Shown piece after piece: positions 10,741-35,985 of a DNA stretch of 64,000 nucleotides (positions within the stretch are counted from its first letter, which is position 1; every line of letters starts with the position of its first letter). Under the pieces are notes generated by a model. The model did not search any database and was not told the DNA's origin. It saw only the letters and a program-made list of their open reading frames with translations. The stretch comes from Eledone cirrhosa. Taxonomy: Eukaryota. The translations under genes and the position numbers were made by a program. The DNA lies in assembly GCA_964016885.1 (NCBI GenBank), contig OZ024743.1, positions 108,066,001 through 108,130,000 of the forward strand, read 5' to 3'.

Positions 10741-11658
10741 TTAATTGTAAGTTGTGATGTTGCTGTTCCACTCATATTTTCTATTTAATTTTGGTTTTAA
10801 TTCTTTTATGCTTACTGCCTCTGTAATTTGCCTAAACATTGCGTCTTTCTTGTGTGTGGATTCTATTTTTATTTCTATGCTCTCTAATTTACCCCTGTGT
10901 TCTATCTTAGCATGTTGGTAGAGCACAGATGATTCTTTACTATCTTGGAGGTCTCGCCAGTGTTCATTTATTCGTTCCCCTATACTACGAGCTGTCTCAC
11001 CTATGTACACTACATTTTTGTTTCTACATTGTCCTTCAGTACATCTTATGCTATATACTACATTTCTAGTTTTACAGTTAATATGGGGGCTTATTTTACA
11101 GGTTATACATTTCTTATCTATACATGAGGGTCTTTGGAACGGGTATGTCTTGCTAATAAGTGTTTTTACGGAGGTACCAGGTATTTCTACTATCTTAATA
11201 TTGAGATTATGTTTCTTTAGGGCCCTTCTAAATTTGTAGGCTAGTTCGCCTCCAGGGGTTGTATTGATGAACATTACACTCTGGTATTTATTGCTATCAT
11301 ACCATGAGTTTATTCTATTGGCCTTGTTCTTAGTACTTTCTATTCTATTCCAAAATTTGCTCCTATACAAGGGGCAGGTCCCATTTATGTCATTATTTAC
11401 CATTTTTTCCCATTTGGTTCTGGCTCCTTTATACACTCTGATTCTATCTCTCTGATTGTAGCCAGAGAACTGCATACGGTGGATGAAGTGTTGTATGTGT
11501 CTCTCTAGTTCTTCGGGGTTGCACATGCGGGACACATTTCTCATCACCCGTACCAAATCCGCAATCAGTATGTTGATTTTGGTATGGTCCGAAATGGCCG
11601 AGTTTCGGTGGATCAGATGTTTGGAAGTCATGGGTTTGGCATAATGGGAATGGAGGAT
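10741..11658 (-). CDS. Truncated Penelope-like polyprotein: RT C-terminal/thumb region, Cys-rich linker, GIY-YIG endonuclease
   Basis: Frame is open from 11658 (ILHSHYAKPMTSK, so the ATG at 11631 is internal); motifs SA..TK.NIL..R..RN, RMQFSGY, CPLYR, C-x4-C-x2-C..C, NVVYSIRC...YIGETARSIGERINEH, EAVSIKELKPKLN; no stops. Confidence 0.9.
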   Translation of the reverse strand: MLHSHYAKPMTSKHLIHRNSAISDHTKINILIADLVRVMRNVSRMCNPEELERHIQHFIHRMQFSGYNQRDRIRVYKGARTKWEKMVNNDINGTCPLYRSKFWNRIESTKNKANRINSWYDSNKYQSVMFINTTPGGELAYKFRRALKKHNLNIKIVEIPGTSVKTLISKTYPFQRPSCIDKKCITCKISPHINCKTRNVVYSIRCTEGQCRNKNVVYIGETARSIGERINEHWRDLQDSKESSVLYQHAKIEHRGKLESIEIKIESTHKKDAMFRQITEAVSIKELKPKLNRKYEWNSNITTYN

Positions 11659-27367: not shown

Positions 27368-27486
27368 AATTACGGCCATATCACGCTGAAAACACCGGTT
27401 TTCCTCCGATCACTGAAGTTAAGCAACGTCGAGCCTAGTTAGTACTTAGATGGGTGACCGCTTGGGAACCCTATGTGCCGTAAGCA
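27368..27486 (+). rRNA. 5S rRNA gene copy, probably an orphon or pseudogene
   Basis: TTACGGCCATATCACGCTGAAAACACCGGTT...CCGATCACTGAAGTTAAGC...TTAGTACTTAGATGGGTGACCGCTTGGGAA...GTGCCGTAAGCA; box A and box C recognisable; first two bases (AA rather than GC) do not pair with the 3' end; only three T follow. Confidence 0.9.
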
Positions 27487-34882: not shown

Positions 34883-35157
34883 CATATGTATATATGTATG
34901 TAAATATGTATGTGTATATGTGCGTGTGTATTGTATACATATTCATACCATATTTCCAACTATATCTTATGTGTGTATATGTGAAATTGATGTTTTTTTT
35001 TCTTTCTTTTGCAGGTAAGTACACCAAAAAAGGTTGCCAAAAAAAACATCAACATTTCACATATACACACATAGATATCAGTTGGAATATTGGTTATGAA
35101 TAAGTATACAAACACGCACATATACACATACATATTTAACATACATATATACATATG
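34883..35157. repeat. ~120-bp imperfect inverted repeat with a ~37-nt loop
   Basis: 34883-35001 pairs with 35039-35157, including non-microsatellite words (ATTCATA, TTCCAACT, GTGAAAT, TTGATGTTTTTTTT). Confidence 0.9.
34987..35020 (+). promoter_or_regulatory. Candidate recursive splice site (zero-length exon), AG|GT at 35014/35015
   Basis: TTGAT branch-like motif, 18-nt pure pyrimidine tract, GCAG, then the consensus donor GTAAGT. Confidence 0.55.
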
Positions 35158-35779
35158 ATGCTATGCTGTACTATTCATACTATACATATCATACATACAT
35201 TCATACATACATACATACATACATACATACATACATACATACATACATACATACATACATGAATGCATACATACATGATGGACTCCCTCATATTATCTCT
35301 AAATATGAGGGCCCCCCAATATTCTCACTTCGTATTTTATGGTTATGCCTGAAGTGGCACTTCTGTCCAGCTGCTGATTTACACGTCAAGCTGCATTTAT
35401 AGTATATGACAGGAATATGTGCGTAGCAGAATGGAATATTTGGTCGAATCTTAGAGTTAGTTCTTTGATCACGAAGATAGACCGGATGAGATTTTTCAAA
35501 GTTCTTTATACCTTTATGTCAGACTGTTCTTCGTTTTCTACGTTCAGCAGTTAGAGCCTGAAAAGTAGTTACATGTATGTTCACAGATTTAACATCATTT
35601 TGGCTTTATATTAGAGTAACGGTCTGCCTACATTACGTCCACCATTATGGTGTAGACGGTATAATGGTACCTTGGATGTACGTTTCTCAGGCATCAACAA
35701 GACATGATCAACCAAGTTGAGGTTGCATCAGAAATGACTATAACATGGGTGTTGCACTTCCTGAACAGATCGGCTAAGG

Positions 35780-35985
35780 AGATTCTTTCTGAAAGTGCAT
35801 AATCACAGATAGAACGAAGACAGTGTGGAAGACATCACAATTATAAATGTAGGTGCGATAAAGTGTCCATGACTCCACATAGACAATGATGTTTGCCAAA
35901 AACATTAGTTGCTTTGAAGACGCGATTGACAATCTCATCATCCAGAGATACAGTGATGTTCACCTCAGATCCTTTCCATCAGCAG
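35780..35985 (+). mobile_element. Possible highly decayed LINE RT fragment
   Basis: MMFAKNI resembles MLFADDI; weak support only. Confidence 0.25.

Follow-up and report, generated by a model that had tools for sequence, protein, structure and literature searches.

A likely ratchet point enclosed in a long hairpin within the 497-kb first intron of an octopus gene

In a stretch of 64,000 nt from Eledone cirrhosa (contig OZ024743.1, here C4, positions 108,066,001-108,130,000 of the forward strand; hereafter the window), a splice acceptor and a splice donor stand back to back in the loop of a long predicted RNA hairpin. Recursive splicing, in which such tandem sites act as ratchet points, is an established process in flies and in a few genes of vertebrates; for other insects and for sea urchin it is predicted. 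The locus raises the question of whether this site is a ratchet point of the known kind, and whether the hairpin around it is a device, an accident or an artefact.

The initial annotation had described the motif as TTGAT, a G, a pyrimidine tract and GCAG/GTAAGT (the slash marking the junction of acceptor and donor), and this sequence is indeed found at 34987-35020. It had also been called the strongest back-to-back acceptor and donor in the window, which agrees with our count: among six YAGGTRAG matches on both strands it is preceded by 18 pyrimidines in 20 positions, versus 5-11 for the others. A single match to the tight motif is present in the window, and none in any of 100 shuffles; the 226 nt 5' of the site are free of AG. 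The features of the locus are as follows, with offsets counted from the junction.

34883 to 35000, plus strand: 5' arm of the hairpin, 118 nt long and likely the original sequence; AG-free, and bearing the branch-point motif and the first 8 bases of the tract.
34987 to 34991, plus strand: putative branch-point motif TTGAT, followed by G at 34992; its A, at 34990, precedes the end of the AG by 24 nt, and its role is assigned from the consensus. Predicted to be fully paired after the 3' arm is transcribed.
34993 to 35010, plus strand: polypyrimidine tract of 18 nt, with 34993-35000 in the stem and the remainder in the loop.
35012 to 35022, plus strand: back-to-back acceptor and donor CAG/GTAAGTAC, preceded by a G (CAG at 35012-35014, GTAAGT at 35015-35020, junction 35014/35015); candidate ratchet point no. 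2 of 5 in intron 1.
35001 to 35038, plus strand: loop of 38 nt, including a weak donor AAG/GTTGCC at 35033 (+18; 5/9 U1 matches, a simple custom measure built on the consensus).
35039 to 35157, plus strand: 3' arm of the hairpin (119 nt), an inverted copy of 34883-35000 that begins at a run of eight A (A8).
35093 (+78), plus strand: best GT within the 3' arm, TTG/GTTATG (4/9 U1 matches).
35158 to 35260, plus strand: zone of transition, where the inverted copy apparently goes on with a C inserted every 4-5 nt, merging into a (CATA)n repeat.
35270 to 35970, plus strand: old dispersed repeat in the 3' flank, outside the hairpin, with 39 other scored candidates at about 69-75% identity.
1 to 64000, plus strand: the whole window, part of the predicted intron 1 (497,210 nt as assembled).

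The inverted arms of about 120 bp reported earlier thus measure 118 and 119 nt. Across 113 aligned columns they form 112 Watson-Crick pairs, with 8 indel events, one substitution (A·A) and no G·U pair, and the RNA has a minimum free energy of -154.9 kcal/mol (z -20.4), equalled by none of 100 shuffles. The division of the site between stem and loop also stands as first described: the predicted fold pairs the A of the branch motif and 8 tract bases out of 18, and CAG/GTAAGT sits in the loop. An Rfam scan of the window gave no match at the hairpin, and a known RNA family, miRNA or other, was rejected as its identity on that ground; the sole hit was a solitary, full-length 5S rRNA match within the intron (window 27368-27486, plus strand, 94.4 bits). 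A scan for bacterial promoters and terminators, irrelevant to a eukaryote, found nothing above shuffles.

No exon of the host appears among the open reading frames listed to a distance of 100 kb from the window; the gene was located by a splice-site scan of the flanking DNA. A plus-strand exon about 307 kb downstream matches DUF7044 (E 7e-9). Its two database relatives are the 580-aa Octopus sinensis protein LOC115218431 (96% identity), which has domains DUF7042, DUF7043, DUF7044 and DUF7045, and a protein of Argonauta (89%). Compared with the genome, the LOC115218431 protein gives 14 matches, of which 13 are ordered on the plus strand within C4:108.41-108.68 Mb and the remaining one is weak and on C1. 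Residues 1-18 match at 18 of 18 positions about 190 kb upstream of the focal site (exon 1, coding part C4:107910432-107910486), and exon 2, which starts downstream at C4:108407697, matches at 46 of 48 residues. Since residues of one protein flank it in this way, the window lies inside intron 1 of a plus-strand gene model, and the giant plus-strand intron that had been postulated is this one, 497,210 nt long if the assembly is taken as it stands, with a 200-N gap downstream of the focal site, between sites 4 and 5 of the series described below. The predicted host is thus the plus-strand ortholog of LOC115218431 of Octopus sinensis, whose protein passes from exon 1 to exon 2 with no residue in between. 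Farther upstream, on the plus strand, lies an open frame (C4:107680924-107681116; window-relative -385077 to -384885) that reads like the beginning of elongation factor 1-alpha, possibly a retrocopy.

A scan of 864 kb on both strands with a single acceptor score found nine acceptor-donor sites, all nine on the plus strand. Six fall in intron 1, namely five of the form YAG/GTAAGTAC and the second donor of the third of these; the remaining three are weaker and lie upstream of exon 1. The five junctions, at window-relative positions -34436, 35015, 122562, 162117 and 283378, are these:

C4: 108031564, 108101015 (the focal site), 108188562, 108228117 and 108349378, plus strand: five ratchet-like junctions, YAG/GTAAGTAC.

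Within intron 1 this motif therefore occurs five times on the plus strand and never on the minus strand, about once per 100 kb, and divides the intron into pieces of 121, 69, 88, 40, 121 and 58 kb. The bias does not extend to plain strong acceptors, which number 949 and 897 on the two strands of 664 kb, or 52 and 51 where a GT follows. A sense-strand bias of (y)n ncag/gtaagt in large introns is likewise what the computational survey PMC2773006 describes, with sense/antisense enrichments of 21.7 in fly, far above 10 in mosquito, 4.0 in bee, 8.0 in beetle and 8.2 in sea urchin.

At three of the four sibling sites a second donor follows, at +46, +54 and +51. The last of the five lacks a good one and runs into a (TA)n repeat. 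The focal site matches the acceptor and donor consensus in full (Y18-G-CAG/GTAAGT, branch motif at -25), and it too is without a good second donor, the best GT in +20 to +90 being the one with 4/9 U1 matches; in fly ratchet points a second donor some 30-90 nt downstream, which closes the cryptic RS-exon, is a defining feature. The donors of exon 1 (C4:107910487) and exon 2 (C4:108407839) also read GTAAGTAC, and positions +7 and +8 are AC in all four siblings versus 8 of 68 other sites (p 5e-4). Exon 1 ends in a weak TCG, which each regenerated donor would inherit, and this may favour A at +7. Sharing of donor positions +7 and +8 within a gene was rejected as a general rule: it is seen here and, for +7 only, in a cluster of four sites on C4, not in most other pairs. 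The latter four, on the minus strand at C4:227.98-229.16 Mb (L155-L158), all have A at +7, and two of them share about 17 nt after the junction. The RS-exon of the third intron-1 site (C4:108188562-108188615) is 54 nt long, keeps the frame, is free of stops and encodes a hydrophobic stretch; its terminal donor is strong and is itself preceded by CAG, and the segment is a candidate for being included now and then downstream of exon 1, which is signal-peptide-like.

Similar sites are found across the genome. Y14-N-CAG/GTAAGT has 38 matches versus 5 for the reversed pattern, and it takes 38 of the 240 matches spread over 27 possible tails. The reversed pattern is unreliable as a control for loose patterns (80 versus 148; 269 versus 240), and for these we therefore used a permuted donor, against which Y10-N-YAG/GTAAGT is enriched 3.5-fold (148 versus 42). 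Neighbours no more than 750 kb apart share a strand in 16 of 16 pairs among the first 100 of the 148 sites listed, and in 13 of 13 once the host-gene pair and two pairs of duplicated copies (L058 with L059, L150 with L151) are removed; the 42 permuted sites include no pair within 3 Mb. Sequence was fetched around 70 of the 148 sites, of which the focal site and one duplicate were left out (n = 68), and around 20 of the 42 permuted sites. A second donor at +20 to +90 is present at 53 of 68 sites, compared with 117 of the 340 control windows and with 4 of the 20 permuted sites, by a rule that was fixed after the donors of the focal site had been scored; an earlier, stricter rule (at least 7/9 U1 matches) gave 33 of 68, 49 of 340 and 3 of 20. 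The branch motif accompanies 44 of the 68 sites and none of the 20 permuted ones, and the median spacing from junction to second donor is 51-55 nt in three sets.

Because motif enrichment, co-orientation, second donors and branch motifs all point the same way, recursive splicing is likely to occur in Eledone cirrhosa, and co-oriented clusters of ratchet-like sites probably mark other giant introns. The sense-strand orientation of the focal site, the five-site chain and the genome-wide signature lend good support to its initial reading as a ratchet point, made from sequence. Given the duplicated copies mentioned above (L150 and L151, 52 kb apart on C3; L058 and L059, 330 kb apart on C2), local duplication may be an origin of new ratchet points. 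A comparison of the inner hairpin with contigs of four sequencing runs listed only pieces of 30-41 nt, none spanning it and, in two runs of other organisms, of low complexity; such a gap is not evidence of absence. The best piece in two runs belongs to a different ratchet-like site of this genome, with flanks matching L150, and a 31/32 match in another run has unlike flanks and was not counted as an ortholog.

Is the hairpin, then, part of what makes such a site work? None of the 68 other sites genome-wide, nor any of the four siblings, lies in a comparable hairpin. Within 290 nt none of the 68 folds below -100 kcal/mol and the siblings reach -46 to -87, compared with -149 for the focal site. 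With no case among 72 others, the hairpin was rejected as a general design of ratchet points. Nor is it a multicopy element, because in the 3.0-Gb genome its inner 186 nt have no match but themselves, although such a result is not proof of rarity; the full 275 nt find matches elsewhere only through their low-complexity ends, in stretches no longer than about 105 nt and 72-93% identical. The suggestion of a high-copy MITE or other multicopy foldback element was discarded on this evidence.

Long hairpins as such are not unusual in this region. Defined by non-microsatellite arms of at least 80 nt, a loop of at most 100 nt and at least 85% identity, 36 occur in 864 kb, or about one per 24 kb; 21 of them have copies within the 864 kb and 15, the focal one included, do not. 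Many begin at (TA)n repeats, and together they amount to a large potential pool of double-stranded RNA inside one intron. The local long hairpins may be linked to Penelope-like elements. A 305-aa open frame on the minus strand of the window (10741-11658) presumably resembles the end of a Penelope-like reverse transcriptase with a GIY-YIG endonuclease. Assuming 100-500 ratchet points, and depending on the set of hairpins taken, the probability that some ratchet point lies within the span of a hairpin is 0.5-1.0, and that one lies in a loop about 0.04-0.4. The latter figure is low, and an accidental hairpin therefore leans on the geometry of a fold-back event: if copying were primed by the T tract of the site itself, the figure would rise, since the A run that pairs with the tract must lie past the AG/GT.

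The arms themselves give no indication of selection. If a duplex had long been under selection as RNA, G·U pairs would be expected to accumulate in it on the strand that is transcribed. In 113 aligned arm columns there are no compensatory or G·U pairs favouring one strand, and the minus strand folds as well as the plus strand (-154.6 versus -152.2). Judged from their sequence, the arms carry no apparent sign of selection at the RNA level; a very young or gene-converted duplex would look alike.

The explanation that we consider slightly better than even is that the site is a ratchet point of the Drosophila type and that the single-copy hairpin is an accidental fold-back that weakens it. In the splicing path so envisaged, the donor of exon 1 would be joined to each AG in turn, each join regenerating GTAAGTAC, and intron 1 would be removed as six pieces of the sizes given above. 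The hairpin would have arisen when a nascent DNA strand folded back and the A8 run, 24 nt past the junction, paired with the T tract of the site; copying would then have run about 120 nt backwards before the strand rejoined at the downstream (CATA)n repeat. The zone at 35158-35260 is a candidate point of re-entry, or else noisy consensus. By this geometry alone the tract would end up in the stem and AG/GT in the loop, and the second (RS-exon) donor would be lost by overwriting: the 3' arm starts at +24 and occupies the zone in which other sites have theirs. Inverted duplications made by fold-back or template switching, as in quasi-palindrome conversion and snap-back synthesis, are known, and the locus resembles them: some 120 nt are copied in inverted form right next to the original, the spacer is short, and there is A/T-run microhomology on the inside and a microsatellite on the outside. 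It differs from them in its indel-rich arms, which are atypical even among the local hairpins.

As to effect, folds of truncated transcripts leave the branch A 55-69% unpaired up to +30 (0.69 at +30) and 0.0 at +38. Once about 38 nt past the junction had been transcribed, the branch point and half of the tract would thus be paired, and the focal site would often be skipped, so that a single piece of 157 kb, reaching from site 1 to site 3, would be removed in place of 69 and 88 kb. We expect less use of it than of its siblings because the branch A pairs from +38 and the 3' arm covers the second-donor zone, and we file it as a likely damaged ratchet point because a good second donor is absent. 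As 15 of the 68 other sites likewise lack one, that loss need not be the work of the hairpin. The perfect consensus at the site would fit a recent origin of the hairpin, and also continued use. Of the alternative put forward at the outset, a cryptic site silenced by the hairpin, the silencing comes close to this explanation; the word cryptic does not, as the site is likely a true ratchet point.

A different account, unlikely in our judgement though the first to be reckoned with, accepts the ratchet point and attributes all or part of the 3' arm to an error of assembly, either a fold-back read or two alleles merged into one consensus; in reality the locus would then have an ordinary RS-exon, or a cleaner hairpin on one allele only. 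It draws on the differences between the arms. Indels and substitutions stand at 8:1 in the core and 14:15 in an extended alignment, versus 48:293 in the 35 other hairpins (Fisher p 2e-6 for the core, which was delimited after inspection, and 4e-5 for the extended alignment); five of the eight indels change a homopolymer by one base; and 35158-35200 resembles two interleaved sequences. Such arms are not expected from plain ageing, and would fit error-prone copying or slippage as well as a noisy or merged consensus. Against an artefact, natural slippage is frequent in microsatellite-like sequence such as that of the arms, and other hairpins of the assembly are clean, one having 298 matches with no substitution, from which it follows that hairpins as such are well assembled.

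That the hairpin is accidental but harmless seems to us rather unlikely. The acceptor would be engaged co-transcriptionally before the 3' arm emerged, and the site would be used like its siblings, with the weak donors at +18 and +78 standing in for exon definition and the 18- or 78-nt segment a possible rare, frame-preserving cassette exon. The branch A is predicted to be mostly open until +30, both segments are stop-free multiples of three, and the consensus shows no decay. However, the open phase lasts only about 40 nt of transcription, the donors are weak (5/9 and 4/9 U1 matches), and the O. sinensis protein, as noted, goes directly from exon 1 to exon 2.

We regard as distinctly unlikely the structural gate with which the locus was first credited, a selected stem that hides branch point and tract while displaying AG/GTAAGT. 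It would be opened by a helicase, or by A-to-I editing in the A8 run that faces the tract, allowing the cutting of the 497-kb intron to be tuned by tissue or temperature. Coleoid cephalopods have high ADAR activity, the geometry is exact, the consensus is intact, and positions -30 to -17 are predicted to be unpaired at only 0.02, compared with 0.27-0.68 at the four siblings. The gate nevertheless lacks support as a selected arrangement, because it recurs at none of the 72 other sites, because long hairpins are common here and because the arms hold no G·U or compensatory pairs; the equal folding of the minus strand speaks against it too. The more specific proposal of fly-style recursive splicing in octopus with, at this site, a duplex gate sensitive to ADAR editing we hold to be decidedly improbable. 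A gate, if true, would connect the A-to-I editing of cephalopods with the piecewise excision of an intron of half a megabase, and site use that tracked editing would be a new mode of splicing regulation; nothing found here points there.

Finally, a chance match of the motif, or a piece of a mobile element such as a MITE, unrelated to splicing, is very improbable, for although the permuted-donor count implies that roughly a quarter of the looser matches may be chance and 21 of the 36 local hairpins have copies nearby, the inner 186 nt are unique in the genome search, the site is co-oriented with its host gene, and its GTAAGTAC recurs at all four siblings and in the donors of exon 1 and exon 2.

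How does the octopus arrangement compare with systems already described? According to PMC8605326, intronic ratchet points of Drosophila are tandem acceptor/donor sites in very long introns, several per intron and skipped from the mRNA, and they comprise cryptic RS-exons with about 50 nt to the second donor. The octopus sites share this layout, and their median spacings match the Drosophila figure. Unlike those of Drosophila, the focal site has no strong second donor and is enclosed in a hairpin of 112 pairs, and it is identified here from DNA sequence. Vertebrate recursive sites consist of AG/GT followed by an RS-exon in long introns, and for mammals only nine fully suppressed long-intron sites are cited (PMC8605326, PMC10156609), the scope of PMC10156609 being fly and human. 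With 148 matches to one tight motif, about 100 above the permuted control, the octopus is nearer to the fly situation than to the mammalian one. The hairpins discussed in PMC2773006 are long-loop inverted-repeat stems of vertebrates, not a stem enclosing a ratchet point, and its main text contains no term beginning mollus-, nor Aplysia or Lottia. Searches of open full-text literature, a collection in which subscription journals mostly fall outside coverage, found no paper joining 'recursive splicing' with octopus or mollusc, and no report of a hairpin-enclosed ratchet point or of recursive splicing in molluscs. The term occurs in passing together with 'cephalopod' in PMC8797185 and with 'squid' in PMC11701258.

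What the locus offers is thus likely a ratchet point of a known kind, probably impaired, in a lineage for which we found no report. The weight of the finding lies mainly in the chain of five sites and the genome-wide signature, and less in the hairpin. Together, the chain and the signature extend the case for recursive splicing to molluscs, with exact junctions at which it can be tested. The focal site may in turn serve as a natural experiment, in which four intact siblings in the same transcript are internal controls for the effects of burying a branch point and losing a second donor.
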